From Bacillota bacterium (GTDB lineage Bacteria > Bacillota > DTU025), in the NCBI GenBank assembly GCA_035382325.1, contig DAOTAC010000001.1, positions 1 to 25,374 of the forward strand: a stretch of 25,374 nucleotides of DNA. Reading direction: 5' to 3'. The stretch's first letter is position 1; each line of letters opens with the position of its first letter. Positions 11,993-18,514 of this stretch are shown one piece after another. Position numbers and translations under genes: made by a program. The notes under the pieces were generated by a model. It was given only the letters and a program-made list of their open reading frames with translations. It was not told where the DNA came from and did no database searches.

Positions 11993-12305
11993 GACACCTG
12001 CTCCTTTAGATAACACGCGTCGATTCCAATGGCAGAAGATATATCATATGAATAGAGGATTCTAGGCAAGGCACACTTATCCTGCCTTGAGCACAACTAA
12101 TAGATACGAAGGAAATCCATTGTTTACGGCCCATGCAGGTAATCCTGCTTTGTCGCGGGGTCTTGCACTTGCACGGGAGAGCATCGCCGGCATTCATACA
12201 GAGGCCCAGGAAATGCAAGTTCAACTATGATACTCTTATGCTGAGCGCTGCGAGGTTTACGGTATCGGCAGGGGCCGAGTGGATTCCAAGACAGGTGGGT
12301 CGTCG

Positions 12306-13856
12306 ATGAGTTCTTTGGAACGTAGTATCAGCATACTCAAGGATGCTTTCCCGGAGGCATTCACCGAGGGAAGGATCGATTTCGATATTCTGCGCGGGTT
12401 GCTTGGCGTTTGTGTGGATGATCGGCACGAGCGCTATCGCCTCACCTGGAACGGCAAGGGCCGTGCCCGACGCATTGCCCAGGCCCCTTCGGTCGGGGCG
12501 CTCCAGCCGAGCCCTGAGGAGTCGGTCGATTGGGATACGACTCAGAATCTCCTGATCGAAGGGGACAACCTGGAGGTTCTGAAGCTACTGCTCAACGAGT
12601 ATCAGGGGAAGATCAAGATGATCTACATCGACCCTCCATACAACACGGGCAACGATTTCATATACCGCGACGACTTCCGCGACAGCGTCGCAAGCTATCT
12701 CCAGCTGACCGGACAGGCCGACGCTAGTGGGCGCCTGCTGCGAGCCGACGCGGAAACCTCGGGCAGGTACCATACTGACTGGCTGAACATGATGTACCCG
12801 CGCCTCAAGCTCGCGCGCAACTTGCTTTGCGAGGACGGTGTTATCTTCATCTCCATCGGCGACAATGAAGTGGCGAACCTCAGGATTATCTGCGATGAGT
12901 TGTTCGGGGAGGGCAGCTGCCTAGGCTGTGTGGCTCGCGTGGCCAAGAAGACGTCGAACAAGGGCACTCACTTTGCGCCGTCCAAAGACTATGTGCTGGT
13001 CTACGCCTGCAGAGCCGAATGTGTCGCTCCTTTCATGGACGTAGTAGACCCTGCGTACGCTTCGCGTTTCAGGGAGCGCGACGGGCGAGGTCGGTACGCC
13101 ACGGTCGGTCTGTACCAGGCGGCTCTCGACCCGCGTCCCAATCAGCGATACTGGATCGCCTGCCCCGACGGGTCGTTCGCCATCCCTCCCGGCGAAGTCT
13201 TTCCTGATGAAGTTGCCGATGGGGCTCAGGTAAAGCCGGCAAGTCGCCGCGACCGGGTGTGGCGCTGGAGCCGCGAGTCGTACCTTGCGAAGAAGCATCT
13301 TCTGGTCTTCAAGAAGTCCGCTCGTAGCCCTCTCGTGACGCCCGACGGGTCGCCGTCGAAATGGAATGTCTACACCAAATACTATCTTGAGGACAGACTG
13401 AATGACGGGATTCGCCCCCGCGACTACCTTGACGACATCACTAACGATCTGGGCACGGCCGCCCTCAAGAGCCTGGGGCTCGACGATTTCTTCGAGTTTG
13501 CCAAACCTCCGGAGCTGGTGCGGCGGCTGATGCAGTGGCTGGGCGGACGCGATGGCATTTACCTCGACTTCTTCGCAGGTTCAGGAACGACGGCCCAGGC
13601 GGTCCTGGAGCAGAATGCGGAGGATGGCGGCAGCCGTCGGTTCATCCTGGTTCAATTGCCTGAGCCCTGCCCTCATGACTCAGTGGCAGCCCAGAATGGT
13701 TACAACACAATCTTCGACATCTGCAAAGAGCGCATCCGACGGGTGATCGCACGCCTGCGCGCCGACGAGGCGCATGGCACCGCGCTCGACTTGGGATACC
13801 GCGTTTTCAAGCTGCGAGGTGAAGCAGTTGAAGATCAAGTTCGACCCAGATCTTGA
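12306..13856 (+). CDS. mod: Type III R-M adenine methyltransferase Mod, copy 1 (lacks the C-terminal domain)
   Basis: FPEAFTEGRIDFD N-terminal segment, IEGDNLEVLKLL, motif IV IDPPYNTG, WLNMMYPRL, variable TRD region, KP motif, motif I DFFAGSGTT (beta-class order), FILVQLPE. Ends 13 residues after LDLGYRVFKL. Start could alternatively be GTG 12279. Confidence 0.9.
   Translation: MSSLERSISILKDAFPEAFTEGRIDFDILRGLLGVCVDDRHERYRLTWNGKGRARRIAQAPSVGALQPSPEESVDWDTTQNLLIEGDNLEVLKLLLNEYQGKIKMIYIDPPYNTGNDFIYRDDFRDSVASYLQLTGQADASGRLLRADAETSGRYHTDWLNMMYPRLKLARNLLCEDGVIFISIGDNEVANLRIICDELFGEGSCLGCVARVAKKTSNKGTHFAPSKDYVLVYACRAECVAPFMDVVDPAYASRFRERDGRGRYATVGLYQAALDPRPNQRYWIACPDGSFAIPPGEVFPDEVADGAQVKPASRRDRVWRWSRESYLAKKHLLVFKKSARSPLVTPDGSPSKWNVYTKYYLEDRLNDGIRPRDYLDDITNDLGTAALKSLGLDDFFEFAKPPELVRRLMQWLGGRDGIYLDFFAGSGTTAQAVLEQNAEDGGSRRFILVQLPEPCPHDSVAAQNGYNTIFDICKERIRRVIARLRADEAHGTALDLGYRVFKLRGEAVEDQVRPRS
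12429..12915 (+). repeat. Direct repeat copy 1 (mod1 MTase N-terminal half), homologous to 16139-16625
   Basis: Gap-free at constant offset 3710. Identical runs: tcacctggaacggcaag (12442/16152), aagatgatctacatcgaccc (12615/16325), actggctgaacatgatgta (12778/16488). Two sampled 60-nt blocks are 41/60 and 48/60 identical. Confidence 0.85.
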
Positions 13857-16116
13857 CTATCAGCGCGATGCGATCGACTCGGTTGTTCAGATCTTTGCGG
13901 GTCAGGAAGACTGCCGGGCCGACTTCGCGGGCGATCTGGTCATCGGGAACCGTCTCCGCTTATCAGAGGAAGAGATACTGAAGAATGTGAGGGCCATTCA
14001 GCTTTGCAATGGGCTAGCTCTGTCTGATACGGTTTCCGGCATGAACTTCACTGTGGAGATGGAGACGGGCACCGGCAAGACATATGTCTACTTGAGGACC
14101 ATTTTCGAGCTCAACCGGGAATACGGGTTTCTCAAATTCATAATTGTCGTGCCGTCTATCGCGATCAAGGAAGGGGTCGCGAAGTCGCTCCAGATGGTCG
14201 AGGAGCATATGCGCGGGCTGTATGATAACGTTCGGTTTGACCACTTCATCTACGATCCCGCCAGCCTCAGTCAGGTGCGGAACTTCGCCACGAGCGACTA
14301 CATACAGATCATGATCATCAACATCGATGCATTCCGCAAGAGCTTCGTCGACCCAGAAAAAGAGCATAGGGCCAACATCATCCATCGTTCGCACGACCGG
14401 ATGATGGGCGCTCGCCCAATCGAGTTCATCCAGGGCACGAGCCCGATCGTCATCATTGATGAACCGCAGAGCGTAGATACGACGGCCAAAAGCGCTGAGG
14501 CCATAGCGTCGCTTCATCCGCTGTGCACCCTGCGGTACTCCGCCACCCACGTGGAGAGGCACAACATGATGTACAGGTTGGATCCGGTCGATGCGTACCA
14601 GCGCAAGCTGGTCAAGCAGGTTGAGGTGGCAAGTGTCGAGGCAAGCCACGGGCCGAGCAGGCCGTATGTGAGGCTACTGGGTGTAGACAACACAAGAGGT
14701 TCGATCACTGCCAGGATTGAGCTGGATGCGCTGCACAGGGGTGGCGCGGTCAGGCGCGTGGCCAGATCCGTCCGCTGCGGCGACGACCTGCAGGAGGTCT
14801 CGGGCAGTCGGGATGTCTACACCGGCTACATCGTCGAGAATATCTGCTGTGAGAGGGGTAATGAGCACATCATGCTCGCCCGATGGCCTGAGGCTGTGCG
14901 GCTGAACCAGCCTATCGGTGATCTAGACGATGGCGAGTACAAGCGCATTCAGATACGGACTACCATCCGGGAGCACCTGGACAAGGAATTGATGCTCCGG
15001 CCAAGGGGCGTCAAGGTGCTCAGCTTGTTCTTTATCGATCGGGTCGCCAACTACCGTTGGTACGACGAGGACGGCAATCCGCGTAAGGGCAAGTATGCGC
15101 AGATGTTCGAGGAGGAGTACGTAAAGGCGATGGGCGACGTTAAGTACCGTTCGCTGCCGGAAGGGGCTGACCCGGCGGCTGCGGCTGAGAGCGTGCACAA
15201 CGGGTATTTCGCCATCGACAGGAGAAGGGACGCGGCAGGCCGGGATATGTTCAGGGAGTCGCGGGGCGATGGTGTTGCGCAGGCCGACGAGAGCGCGTAC
15301 CAGCTGATCATGAGGGACAAGGAGAAGCTGGCAAGCTTCGAGTCTGGGCTGAAGTTCATCTTCTCTCACTCAGCTCTCAGGGAGGGCTGGGATAATCCCA
15401 ACGTGTTTCAGATCTGCACGCTGAACGACACGGTCTCTGCGATGAAGAAAAGGCAGGAGATAGGGCGCGGTCTGCGCCTTGCCGTGAACCAGGACGGCGA
15501 GCGGGTTTACGGCTTCGATGTGAACACCTTGACTGTCGTGGCCAACCAGTCATATGCGGAGTTCGTCCGGCAGCTGCAGAGCGAGATCGAAGAGGATACA
15601 GGGGTCCGACTGGGCGAAGCGCGTCGGCTCAATGTCAAGAACGCGGCCGAACGGAGGCAAGTCGGACCGGGCGGGTCGAATGGTGTCGGCACAAGCCCAG
15701 AGCCGGGGCCGAAGCAGGAGTGCAACACTGGGTATCGTGTGACATTCGATACAGATGAGCTGATTAGGCGGTGCGCCGGCGAAATCCGGCGGATGCCGGC
15801 GATAGATCACACGGGACCTATGATACGGAAAGCGCGACTCGGGATGGGTCGCGGCGGGATCGGGGCAGGAGACGTTCGCGTCAGCGCCGAGATACATGAG
15901 GCTCATGGTCATCCGTTGCCCGACATAGTGACCCAGTTGCAGAACGATACCTCCCTAACCCGGCGCACGATTGTGAAAATCCTGGTGCAAAGTGGAAGGC
16001 TTGAGGACTTCAAGGCCGGCCCGCAGGTGTTCATAGAGAAGGTGTCGGCGATTATCCGGCGCCGGGTGGGGCTGTGCATTCAGGAGGGCGGGACACATGC
16101 AGGGACTGGATCCTAG
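13828..16116 (+). CDS. res: Type III R-M Res-family helicase/ATPase lacking the C-terminal endonuclease domain
   Basis: TTG 13828 lies 6 nt after SD GAGGTG and gives the family-type start MKIKFDPDLDYQ (GTG 13819 is an alternative). Motifs EMETGTGKTYVYLRTIFEL, IIDEPQ, RYSAT, SALREGWDNPNVFQIC and QEIGRGLR are intact. The protein ends shortly after LTRRTIVKIL...PQVFIEKV, with no PD-(D/E)xK-type motif. Confidence 0.88.
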   Translation: MKIKFDPDLDYQRDAIDSVVQIFAGQEDCRADFAGDLVIGNRLRLSEEEILKNVRAIQLCNGLALSDTVSGMNFTVEMETGTGKTYVYLRTIFELNREYGFLKFIIVVPSIAIKEGVAKSLQMVEEHMRGLYDNVRFDHFIYDPASLSQVRNFATSDYIQIMIINIDAFRKSFVDPEKEHRANIIHRSHDRMMGARPIEFIQGTSPIVIIDEPQSVDTTAKSAEAIASLHPLCTLRYSATHVERHNMMYRLDPVDAYQRKLVKQVEVASVEASHGPSRPYVRLLGVDNTRGSITARIELDALHRGGAVRRVARSVRCGDDLQEVSGSRDVYTGYIVENICCERGNEHIMLARWPEAVRLNQPIGDLDDGEYKRIQIRTTIREHLDKELMLRPRGVKVLSLFFIDRVANYRWYDEDGNPRKGKYAQMFEEEYVKAMGDVKYRSLPEGADPAAAAESVHNGYFAIDRRRDAAGRDMFRESRGDGVAQADESAYQLIMRDKEKLASFESGLKFIFSHSALREGWDNPNVFQICTLNDTVSAMKKRQEIGRGLRLAVNQDGERVYGFDVNTLTVVANQSYAEFVRQLQSEIEEDTGVRLGEARRLNVKNAAERRQVGPGGSNGVGTSPEPGPKQECNTGYRVTFDTDELIRRCAGEIRRMPAIDHTGPMIRKARLGMGRGGIGAGDVRVSAEIHEAHGHPLPDIVTQLQNDTSLTRRTIVKILVQSGRLEDFKAGPQVFIEKVSAIIRRRVGLCIQEGGTHAGTGS

Positions 16117-17968
16117 TATCGGCCAAAGCCTGGGGTCGGAGAGATACAGCTTCACCTGGAACGGCAAGCGCCGCGCCGGACTTATTGCTCAAGCGCCGCC
16201 CGACGGCACGCTCCGTCCTTGCCCCGAGCAGTCAGTCAATTGGGATACGACGCGCAACCTCTTCATCGAAGGTGACAACCTGGAAGTCCTCAAGTTGCTG
16301 CAGAAGTCTTATCACAAGAAAGTGAAGATGATCTACATCGACCCGCCTTACAATACGGGTAAGGATTTTGTGTACCGCGATGACTTCACAGACAGTATCC
16401 AAAACTACTTGAGATTGACGGGGCAGGTGGATGAGGCGGGGCGTCGCCTCTCGGCCAACCCTGAAACATGCGGCCGCTATCATACTAACTGGCTGAACAT
16501 GATGTATCCCCGGATGAGGTTGGCGAGAAACCTCCTGCGAGACGACGGGGTGATCGCCATTTCCATTGATGACCATGAACTGGCCAACCTGCGGAAGATG
16601 TGTGACGAGGTGTTCGGCGAGGAGAATTTCTGCGGTGTGTTCATCTGGGAGAAGAAGAAGAAGCCTTTGTTTCTGGACGCCAACATGGGCACTGTGACCG
16701 AGTACATAATCTGCTTCGCCAAAAACCGGGCACAGTCGCCGCCCTTTGGTGCCGGCGCTGCCCGGGAGGGGAAGAAGTACCCGTTCAACAATGCGGGCAA
16801 CGGCGTTCAGACCCTGACGTTTCCGGCCGGGAGTGTGCGGTTCGGCTTCGGTGATCAGGTGGTGGCGGCTCAGGACATGTCGGAGGGCAGCATCTTCACT
16901 GAACTGCTGGATGATGTGGCGATTGTGGGCGGGCGGAACGCCAATGCATTCCGCCTGAGGGGCGAGTGGCGATACTCCCAGCAGAAGCTGGACGAGTTTG
17001 TGCAGGAAGGCGCAGACATCGTCATAAGCAAGATCCCGTTCAGGCCAAACTATGTCAGCCGTTCGGGCGAGCTGAAGAAGACTTCGAATCTGCTGTCATA
17101 CCGCACCAACGGCGTGCCCACGTATGAGGATGCGACGCAGGAGATCCGAGCCCTTTTCGGGGCCGATGTGATGAGCTACCCCAAGCCCAGCGGGTTGATG
17201 AAGTACCTTGTACGTGCTATGACGGGCGAAGGCGACATCGTCATGGACTTCTTCGCGGGATCCGGGAGCACCGCACACGGCGTCATGCTCCAAAACAGCG
17301 AAGATGGCTACAATCGCCAGTACATACTGGTGCAACTGCCGGAACCTCTGAAGCCTGATGATGCCGAGAGCGGGCCGGCCTTCGAGTTCTGCCGGGCACA
17401 CGGCTTGAGCCCTACAATCGCCGAAATCGGAAAGGAGAGAATCCGACGGGCCGCCACGGCCGCCGCGGCGGGCGCGGTGGAGCGGGGGGCCCTTGGGCTT
17501 GGCCCTGAGTTTGGTCCTGGTCTTGGCGCTGGCCGTGGCTCAGGTCTTGACCTGGGGTTTAGAGTCTTCAGGCTTGACAGCAGCAACCTTTGGCCGTGGG
17601 ACTCGGACCCCCGGAATCTCGAGGAGTCCCTGCTGCAGGCGGTGGAGCGGATCAAGGACGATCGACAAGAGGCAGACGTCCTATACGAGTTGGTGATCCA
17701 GTACGGGCTGGATCTCGCGGCGTCCGTCGAAAGGCGGGAGATCGACGGCAAGGCAGTCTATATAGTGGGTGAGGGCGAACTGGTGGTATGCCTTGCCGAT
17801 CATATCAGCTCGAGACTTGCTCTCGGCATTGCGCGACTCCGCGCGGAGCTTGCGGCGGCCCAGATGCAGGTGGTGCTCAGGGACGCAGGCTTCGACAGCG
17901 ATGCCGACAGAATCAACACCATACAGGTTCTGCGCGGGGCGGGGGTTGAAAGCGCAAAGACGCTGTGA
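16097..17968 (+). CDS. mod: Type III R-M adenine methyltransferase Mod, copy 2 (short N-terminus, C-terminal domain present)
   Basis: ATG 16097 follows SD AGGAGGG inside res (20-nt overlap). ERYSFTWNGK starts at residue 15, then IEGDNLEVLKLL, IDPPYNTG, a TRD unrelated to mod1, YPKP, DFFAGSGST, and the C-terminal domain from LDSSNL...LYEL...GLDL to VVLRDAGF. Confidence 0.92.
   Translation: MQGLDPSIGQSLGSERYSFTWNGKRRAGLIAQAPPDGTLRPCPEQSVNWDTTRNLFIEGDNLEVLKLLQKSYHKKVKMIYIDPPYNTGKDFVYRDDFTDSIQNYLRLTGQVDEAGRRLSANPETCGRYHTNWLNMMYPRMRLARNLLRDDGVIAISIDDHELANLRKMCDEVFGEENFCGVFIWEKKKKPLFLDANMGTVTEYIICFAKNRAQSPPFGAGAAREGKKYPFNNAGNGVQTLTFPAGSVRFGFGDQVVAAQDMSEGSIFTELLDDVAIVGGRNANAFRLRGEWRYSQQKLDEFVQEGADIVISKIPFRPNYVSRSGELKKTSNLLSYRTNGVPTYEDATQEIRALFGADVMSYPKPSGLMKYLVRAMTGEGDIVMDFFAGSGSTAHGVMLQNSEDGYNRQYILVQLPEPLKPDDAESGPAFEFCRAHGLSPTIAEIGKERIRRAATAAAAGAVERGALGLGPEFGPGLGAGRGSGLDLGFRVFRLDSSNLWPWDSDPRNLEESLLQAVERIKDDRQEADVLYELVIQYGLDLAASVERREIDGKAVYIVGEGELVVCLADHISSRLALGIARLRAELAAAQMQVVLRDAGFDSDADRINTIQVLRGAGVESAKTL
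16139..16625 (+). repeat. Direct repeat copy 2 (mod2 MTase N-terminal half), homologous to 12429-12915
   Basis: Same gap-free alignment at offset 3710 as described for copy 1. Confidence 0.85.
17495..17548 (+). repeat. Degenerate in-frame hexamer tandem repeat in mod2 (Gly-X linker)
   Basis: gggctt ggccct gagttt ggtcct ggtctt ggcgct ggccgt ggctca ggtctt, encoding GLGPEFGPGLGAGRGSGL. Confidence 0.65.
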
Positions 17969-18052: not shown

Positions 18053-18514
18053 GTGAAAATGCAGGATTTCTCGGATTCCGCAAAGTACCAGTGCGGGCAC
18101 CCGATGGCCAAGATCCTTGCCGACCACTGTGATCCTTGCGGCCGTCCCGTTGCCGTGGAATTCTCATGCGGCGACTGTTCCAAGAAGGCTCTTAACGCCA
18201 AGGTAAAGGATATTTGCGCCGGGTTGCTTATCCTGACGCCCTTCGACGCAGGGGGCATCGACATCAAGGTATTCTGTGGAGGCGCGCTGGTAGAGAGAGA
18301 GACGGCGCAGGTGGTGGTCATTCCTCTGGAACGGGTGTGCGCTGTGGAGGTGGGGGCTCGCGAGGTGGACGGATGTCCTCCGTGTCCTCCCTGCCCGCCG
18401 CCATGTTCTGCGTGTCCACCATGTCCACCGTGTCCGCCTTGCCCTCCCTGTCCGCCATGCCCTTCGAACGGGCGACCTCCGACGACCGGGCCGGTGAGCA
18501 CTGGGCCGTCCTAA
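18053..18514 (+). CDS. Small cysteine-rich protein with (Cys-Pro-Pro)n tail; candidate spore coat/exosporium structural protein
   Basis: SD GAGAGGTG precedes GTG 18053/ATG 18059. 18 Cys in 153 aa. The N-terminal domain has HCxxC and CxxC; the tail is CPPCPPCPPPCSACPPCPPCPPCPPCPPCP. Function is inference. Confidence 0.75.
   Translation: MKMQDFSDSAKYQCGHPMAKILADHCDPCGRPVAVEFSCGDCSKKALNAKVKDICAGLLILTPFDAGGIDIKVFCGGALVERETAQVVVIPLERVCAVEVGAREVDGCPPCPPCPPPCSACPPCPPCPPCPPCPPCPSNGRPPTTGPVSTGPS
18374..18463 (+). repeat. 9-nt-period coding repeat TGY-CCN-CCN (10 Cys units)
   Basis: tgtcctccg tgtcctccc tgcccgccg cca tgttctgcg tgtccacca tgtccaccg tgtccgcct tgccctccc tgtccgcca tgccct. Units differ almost only at synonymous positions. 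Confidence 0.9.

Follow-up and report, generated by a model that had tools for sequence, protein, structure and literature searches.

Restriction-modification (R-M) enzymes of Type III are the textbook example of a sliding switch that ATP sets off and that leads to cutting of the DNA, and a truncated res gene is commonly written off as dead. In this work we analyze a window of 25,374 nucleotides, which is the entire 25.4-kb contig DAOTAC010000001.1 of a Bacillota metagenome-assembled genome (MAG; 84% complete; sludge and anaerobic-digester samples). It carries a three-gene operon, mod1-res-mod2, in which a Res motor without an endonuclease domain is encoded between two different methyltransferases (MTases). 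We find that Mod1 and Mod2 form the core that is kept in every species of the genus, and that the motor is conserved where present and dispensable.

The closest described system is EcoP15I, in which the helices of the N-terminal domains (NTDs) of two Mod protomers intertwine in the dimer interface. One protomer, ModA, supplies the target recognition domain (TRD) that reads the site and contacts Res extensively through its C-terminal domain (CTD); the other, ModB, methylates, and its CTD is solvent-exposed (PMC4490356). In Res, the endonuclease comes after RecA1, Pin, RecA2 and a helical spacer that spans 620-810 (PMC4490356). Res genes that are cut before the endonuclease have been described for H. 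influenzae 86-028NP and N. meningitidis modA11, where Mod was kept and the truncation was taken for an inactivation that leads towards phasevarions (PMC1976455). When the literature was searched for Type III systems in which res lies between two mod genes, only phasevarion papers on Actinobacillus came up.

Gene structure and domain content of the operon

The operon comprises mod1 (12306-13856, +; ATG start, with a GTG at 12279 that is open too), res (13828-16116, +; TTG start, likewise in all orthologs) and mod2 (16097-17968, +), each an intact open reading frame (ORF). As the original prediction had it, the genes overlap and each downstream gene has its Shine-Dalgarno sequence inside the preceding one: mod1 and res share 29 nt (13828-13856), res and mod2 share 20 nt (16097-16116), GAGGTGA for res lies at 13816-13822 (+) within the 3' end of mod1 and is kept in all orthologs in the junction alignment, and GGAGGG for mod2 lies at 16083-16088 (+) within the 3' end of res. 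Translational coupling thus joins all three genes.

Res has the build of a Type III motor, namely a superfamily 2 (SF2) motor (RecA1, Pin, RecA2) with a helical spacer. Walker A is located at 14059-14082, DEPQ at 14458-14469, motif VI at 15454-15480 and the last spacer helices at about 15916-16065 (all +). The claim that all ATPase motifs are present was correct, since motifs I (METGTGKT), II (DEPQ), III (SAT) and VI (QEIGRGLRL) lie at alignment columns that do not vary among 40 homologs. The claimed absence of the endonuclease domain was confirmed as well: Res is covered by PADLOC REase_III at positions 2-595 of 989 and by NCBIfam PRK15483 at positions 2-592 of 986, none of Pfam, NCBIfam and PADLOC gives any coverage past profile position ~595, and RE_endonuc (PF19778), the domain carried by the relatives of ~1000 amino acids (aa), is absent. 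In the alignment, Res stops right after the last spacer helices, ~30 aa short of the relatives' nuclease core (block consensus GIKY...DS..E..FA...KLP...YNPDWA...ETKG), and its spacer falls short of that of its nearest relatives by roughly 80-100 aa. For an AlphaFold2 model of Res (pLDDT 77.7) the best PDB match was EcoP15I Res, 4ZCF_C (E 4.6e-32); Type ISP enzymes, Type I HsdR and further SF2 helicases ranked behind it. The model corresponds to EcoP15I Res minus its nuclease. No nuclease remnant appeared when ten nuclease domains were compared by tblastn with the window and eight related loci in any frame, the end of the spacer being all that was matched, and PF19778 was not detected anywhere in the MAG. 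A Res of this composition is predicted not to cleave DNA. In the Res tree it is nested, on a long stem branch, within a clade of ~1000-aa Res proteins. Two of the closest full-length relatives (L034:1-3030 and L035:1-406) lie in clusters of the type SNF2-type helicase-DUF4391-mod-res, and in the L035 cluster the parts are interrupted by AbiE-type and Bro-N genes.

Mod1 and Mod2 both match PF01555 (N6_N4_Mtase) and PADLOC MTase_III (E 1e-154 and 2e-183), and both have the Type III order of a beta-class MTase, with DPPY before the TRD and FxGxG (here FFAGSG) after it. The two motifs are found at 12630-12641 and 13569-13586 in mod1, and at 16340-16351 and 17249-17266 in mod2 (all +). Canonical Mods have an NTD and a CTD around this core, and neither Mod1 nor Mod2 has both. 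Mod1 consists of the NTD, the MTase core and TRD1; it lacks in the alignment the ~110-aa CTD, spans positions 7-501 of the 621 of the PADLOC MTase_III profile and has the motif LGYRVFKL (13791-13814, +) just before its end. Mod2 consists of the MTase, TRD2 and a full CTD (from about 17615, +); it lacks the ~45-aa NTD with the dimerisation helices and spans profile positions 54-617. What is retained overall is one NTD, one CTD, two MTase-TRD cores and a motor with its spacer.

The TRDs, which had been called unrelated, are indeed only 18% identical, versus 70% for the N-terminal MTase halves and 41% overall. Full-length relatives of Mod1 (628-693 aa) show 58-69% identity over 95-99% of Mod1, the TRD of Mod1 being 75% identical to that of the full-length relative L042, and canonical relatives of Mod2 (~649-673 aa) show 55-68% identity over 98% of Mod2. 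Mod1, Mod2 and Res each have ordinary full-length Type III relatives at 64-69% identity, and the CTD-less form of Mod1 and the NTD-less form of Mod2 were found in the one genus only. These relationships indicate that Mod1 and Mod2 are separate Mod lineages and not recent duplicates, and that the operon is a trimmed unit whose Mods descend from two canonical lineages and whose Res descends from one canonical Res lineage. For mod1 and mod2, recent gene conversion was rejected, as a 300-nt direct repeat at an offset of 3710 bp is merely 72% identical. Phase variation was also rejected because no suitable repeat was present in either mod gene: Tandem Repeats Finder (TRF) returned just weak low-copy repeats of period 9-12 and no short-unit slippery tract. 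The linker before the Mod2 CTD contains a Gly/Leu/Pro-rich low-complexity insertion of ~19 aa (17488-17549, +; about five copies of a 12-nt repeat), due to which Mod2 has 623 aa in the window and 595-604 aa in its orthologs.

Selection was assessed by pairwise NG86 dN/dS at dS values of about 0.45-0.55. Over the MTase cores and TRDs of both Mods dN/dS was 0.08-0.15 (Mod1 0.10-0.15, Mod2 0.08-0.13), and over RecA1 and RecA2 of Res it was 0.11-0.13. Higher values were obtained for Pin (0.29), the Mod2 CTD (0.30) and the Res spacer (0.39), and the Mod1 NTD was relaxed (0.56). The original prediction would have been undermined by dN/dS near 1 in these genes, and such values were not found in the cores. 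The nuclease-less Res motor is maintained under purifying selection.

Conservation and variation within the genus

An architecture unique to this assembly would likewise have counted against a functional unit. The search across genomes retrieved the same mod1-res-mod2 architecture from at least nine other independent assemblies (two further species genomes, G002 and G005, and seven metagenome contigs; sources JGI, ENA, NCBI and Logan), all of one Bacillota genus and at the same chromosomal site. The 20-nt overlap of res and mod2 was present in every three-gene locus that was fetched, and neighbours were shared wherever the flanks were reached. In four runs from three further studies, contigs span both junctions with 0 differences; together with the recurrence of the architecture in at least nine assemblies, this led us to reject a misassembly. 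The Res orthologs form a tight clade of 756-774 aa at 77-81% identity, all without PF19778; Res divergence between species is ~20%, and the 10 res orthologs contain no stop or frameshift. The operon is inherited vertically at a single chromosomal site in one genus of sludge Bacillota. In two metatranscriptome libraries the depths of res and mod2 were unlike that of the adjacent permease gene, a contrast more consistent with RNA than with carried-over DNA.

In most orthologs (L002:7998-8003; L004, L026, L027, L029, L030, G005) mod1 and res are in frame, separated by one TAG that is followed by the TTG start. In the window and in L001 a 17-nt-shorter linker puts mod1 in another frame, and the window has CAG for TAG. 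A mod1-res read-through fusion was rejected, the linker being variable and mod1 being taken out of frame by the upstream indel in the window and L001.

Each of the six species genomes of the genus has both mod genes, intact and coupled, and three of these genomes are without Res. G004, the sister of the window genome in the Mod1 tree, has mod1, a res remnant of ~110 nt (residues 515-530 plus the last codons) and a full mod2 with its CTD. In the outgroup pair G001 and G003, mod1 and mod2 are directly coupled (TGAcATG), res is gone and mod2 is without its CTD, so that it is precisely the old Res-less lineage that lacks the Mod2 CTD; in G001 the Mod1 NTD has been lost as well. Between G001 and G003 both mod genes have an omega of about 0.16. 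Because the Mod2 CTD and Res are homologous to parts of canonical systems, the three-gene state is ancestral, and res has therefore been lost twice within the genus, with two losses in 200/200 bootstrap trees. The Res-less genomes are not products of a crossover in the 300-nt repeat, since both mod genes are still there. The genus thus displays a reduction series, in which the nuclease went first, the motor next and the docking domains last, and the methylase pair persists.

Res proteins that end at the same boundary also occur elsewhere, namely in at least 4 of 150 Res-family representatives (P0128, P0129, P0193 and P0145), with the Res of G024 as a fifth. The helicase motifs are kept in P0128, P0129 and P0193, and the loci of P0128, P0129 and G024 each have one normal full-length Mod (NTD and CTD), no second mod and no nuclease remnant. 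A single origin for all short Res proteins was rejected by the Res tree, which forces at least four independent changes; the tree points to loss of the Res endonuclease domain as a recurrent event. Outside this genus, a nuclease-less Res beside one normal Mod evolved separately at least three or four times. An ORF of 679-733 aa without a Pfam match lies 3' of the nuclease-less Res of P0128 (742 aa) (L036:8789-10828, L037:8789-10990).

Taken together, the view of the operon as remodelled and not debris has stood up, the three genes being intact in many diverged relatives and under purifying selection, with the nuclease cleanly absent. The label of a new system is not supported: the unit is not widespread, belongs to one genus and one syntenic site, has full-length relatives and shares its endonuclease loss with Haemophilus and Neisseria, and inside the genus Res was lost twice while both mod genes stayed.

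Possible roles of Mod1, Mod2 and Res

The operon probably encodes a rebuilt, non-cutting methylation machine, neither dead debris nor a wholly new defence system. With moderate confidence, we read it as a derived non-cutting Type III R-M system with a core of Mod1 and Mod2, possibly a hard-wired heterodimer, and Res as an accessory motor. The core under selection would be a pair of adenine/N4-type MTases, and Res would be an accessory, dispensable ATP-dependent motor or sliding switch on double-stranded DNA that is held via the Mod2 CTD, in line with the absence of this CTD from G001 and G003. When the domains are mapped onto the EcoP15I Mod2Res1 structure, a Mod1-Mod2 heterodimer with fixed roles appears most likely, in which Mod2 would occupy the ModA position and Mod1 the ModB position, so that the division of labour in EcoP15I would become fixed. 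Given the continued conservation of the catalytic site and the TRD in both Mods, the heterodimer may be active in either orientation and write two motifs, with the motor coupled to the Mod2-reading orientation only. The output would be methylation and not cleavage; in addition, ATP might trigger the loading of a sliding complex at sites that are unmodified. This heterodimer is favoured by the fit of the domains to the EcoP15I structure, by the coupling of mod1 and mod2 that outlasts the loss of res, and by the relaxed (0.56) and in G001 eventually lost Mod1 NTD, which is expected once the NTD partner is gone. Several points weigh against our interpretation. The constrained catalytic sites and TRDs in both Mods suit two independent homodimers equally well, and the proposed contact between Mod1 and Mod2 comes from mapping the domains onto EcoP15I. 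The two losses of Res in the genus imply that its contribution is dispensable, contigs from RNA libraries are no proof of transcription, and a MAG of 84% completeness leaves room for a nuclease encoded elsewhere. Furthermore, a simple history would start from two adjacent Type III modules, and one deletion from the res nuclease into the 5' end of mod2 could yield two of the three truncations by accident; the case that the complementary truncations were selected is therefore weaker.

A stricter arrangement, which we hold to be possible but rather unlikely, is an obligate 1:1:1 Mod1-Mod2-Res machine, where Mod2 would read the site and hold the motor, Mod1 would methylate, and the ATP switch would serve a use other than cleavage. 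This switch might block unmodified foreign DNA without nucleolysis, by loading sliding complexes on it, or might speed up the search for methylation targets. If this were true, the at least four independent nuclease-less Res lineages elsewhere would represent a general and overlooked 'non-cutting Type III' mode. To a similar, low degree we consider that the operon may encode two separate enzymes, with a Mod1 homodimer for motif 1 and a Mod2 homodimer, formed via the MTase domains, that binds Res via the CTD as a Type III complex without a nuclease, for motif 2. Such enzymes would descend from two adjacent Type III systems by the deletion from the res nuclease to the 5' end of mod2, a deletion of the mod1 CTD and loss of the second res, and their complementarity would be a by-product. 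This would suit the facts that Mod1 and Mod2 are not recent duplicates but have full-length relatives of their own with the same TRDs (at 65-69% identity, against 41% with each other), that both keep DPPY and FxGxG with strongly constrained TRDs (omega 0.10), and that the dimer interface in EcoP15I is largely MTase-MTase (PMC4490356). However, if Mod1 still homodimerises through its NTD, neither the relaxation of this domain nor its disappearance from G001 is expected, and mod1 and mod2 are adjacent and coupled (TGAcATG) even without res.

That the operon still restricts DNA, with the Res motor recruiting a nuclease from elsewhere (either this contig's Type I HsdR or a gene missing from the assembly), is improbable in our judgement. 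The strong purifying selection on the Res ATPase, the completeness of the genome (84%) and the HsdR fragment at 1-1980 would be compatible with it. However, the recruitment of HsdR suggested in the original prediction receives no support, since this HsdR is a C-terminal fragment at the edge of the contig, separated from the operon by 10 kb that include unrelated transporter genes; no linked candidate was found in at least 10 loci, where the sole conserved neighbour is a Cys-rich (Cys-Pro-Pro)n protein; and other loci reaching 5' of mod1 hold transporter, HepT-type and unrelated genes (6-8 kb read). Moreover, PF19778 is found nowhere in the genome, and loss of Res while the mod genes stay is the opposite of what is expected for the partner of a lethal restriction activity. 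An equally poor prospect is a slowly decaying R-M remnant, in which nothing but the methylases counts and a non-functional Res is carried along through polarity or its translational coupling to mod2. Two losses of Res among six species would agree with such decay, as would the faster evolution of the spacer and Pin and the interpretation of the endonuclease-less res alleles of Haemophilus and Neisseria as inactivation (PMC1976455). It is countered by the omega of RecA1 and RecA2 (0.11-0.13 at a dS of about 0.5), by 10 orthologs without stop or frameshift, by the invariance of every helicase motif and by the Mod2 CTD, which would be useless without Res and is still at an omega of 0.30; other independent nuclease-less Res proteins likewise retain their motifs.

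The domains that the two partner methylases have lost are precisely those that only one protomer each uses in the EcoP15I structure. The genus offers a natural experiment on what a Type III motor does besides cutting, on whether two genes can share out the asymmetric roles of the Mod protomers, and on the sequence of losses that reduces an R-M system to resident methyltransferases. The data also carry a warning for annotation: 'DEAD/DEAH helicase' genes beside Type III mod genes can be conserved nuclease-less res genes and not pseudogenes.

Surroundings of the operon and comparison with known systems

The operon lies in transporter and signalling surroundings, between a divergent Bmp-type ABC transporter operon and a MASE3-PAS-GGDEF-HD-GYP gene. 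The intergenic region 5' of mod1 (12017-12305, +) separates it from the divergent transporter operon and presumably contains the promoter of mod1-res-mod2; no match to the sigma-70 consensus was found on the + strand of 12017-12305, and the contigs that cover the operon in one metatranscriptome library have 12269 as their first position. A pair of a small ORF and HepT-like_2 (nucleotidyltransferase-type toxin-antitoxin) is found 5' of mod1 in L026:3099-3985, L030:3-706 and L004:602-1479, directly so in L026 and L030, and is absent from the window. The Type I HsdR fragment (1-1980, +) runs off the contig start and represents the C-terminal two thirds of the protein (SWI2_SNF2, T1R_D3-like, T1RH-like_C); the HsdR nuclease domain, hsdM and hsdS are not present on the 25.4-kb contig. 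On the other side, a gene for the Cys-rich protein with a (Cys-Pro-Pro)n linker (18056-18514, +) begins 90 nt 3' of mod2. In relatives this protein has 240-264 aa with a second domain beyond the repeat, and its N-domain is 91-95% identical among several of them, which is tighter than for the R-M genes; the window allele, confirmed by contigs of other studies, has 153 aa and ends after the repeat. The gene is missing from G001 and G003, and the protein has no Pfam or NCBIfam match. Pfam and NCBIfam returned nothing relevant for the ORFs between mod2 and the GGDEF gene.

The suggestion of a BREX-like defence received no support: a PADLOC scan of 10 neighbouring proteins assigned MTase_III and REase_III alone, to the three operon genes, and detected no BREX (PglZ, BrxC, BrxL) or DISARM (DrmA, DrmB, DrmC) signatures. 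The operon compares best with EcoP15I and EcoP1I (Mod2Res1; PDB 4ZCF), with which it shares the order of mod before res, beta-class Mods with DPPY...TRD...FxGxG and a Res motor of RecA1, Pin, RecA2 and spacer, with 4ZCF_C as the best match in both sequence and fold; like those enzymes, its closest relatives are ordinary Mods of ~650 aa and Res proteins of ~1000 aa. It differs from EcoP15I in that the endonuclease domain is absent, the spacer is shorter, a second mod gene lies 3' of res and overlaps it, and two different Mods, one without a CTD and one without an NTD, replace one homodimer.

With the Type III systems of phasevarions, the operon has in common that the Res endonuclease is lost and Mod retained, and that in some lineages res is lost altogether. 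However, the phasevarion truncations are recent within-species frameshifts, whereas the Res studied here is clean, ~20% diverged and under purifying selection, and the operon has two Mods, with no simple-sequence repeat in either mod gene. For the unequal roles of MTase protomers, METTL3-METTL14 has been cited as an analogue (PMC4490356). If Mod1 and Mod2 do form the proposed heterodimer, both cases would pair paralogous beta-class MTase subunits whose roles are unequal and fixed; in METTL14, however, the catalytic motif has decayed, whereas Mod1 and Mod2 both keep DPPY and FxGxG.

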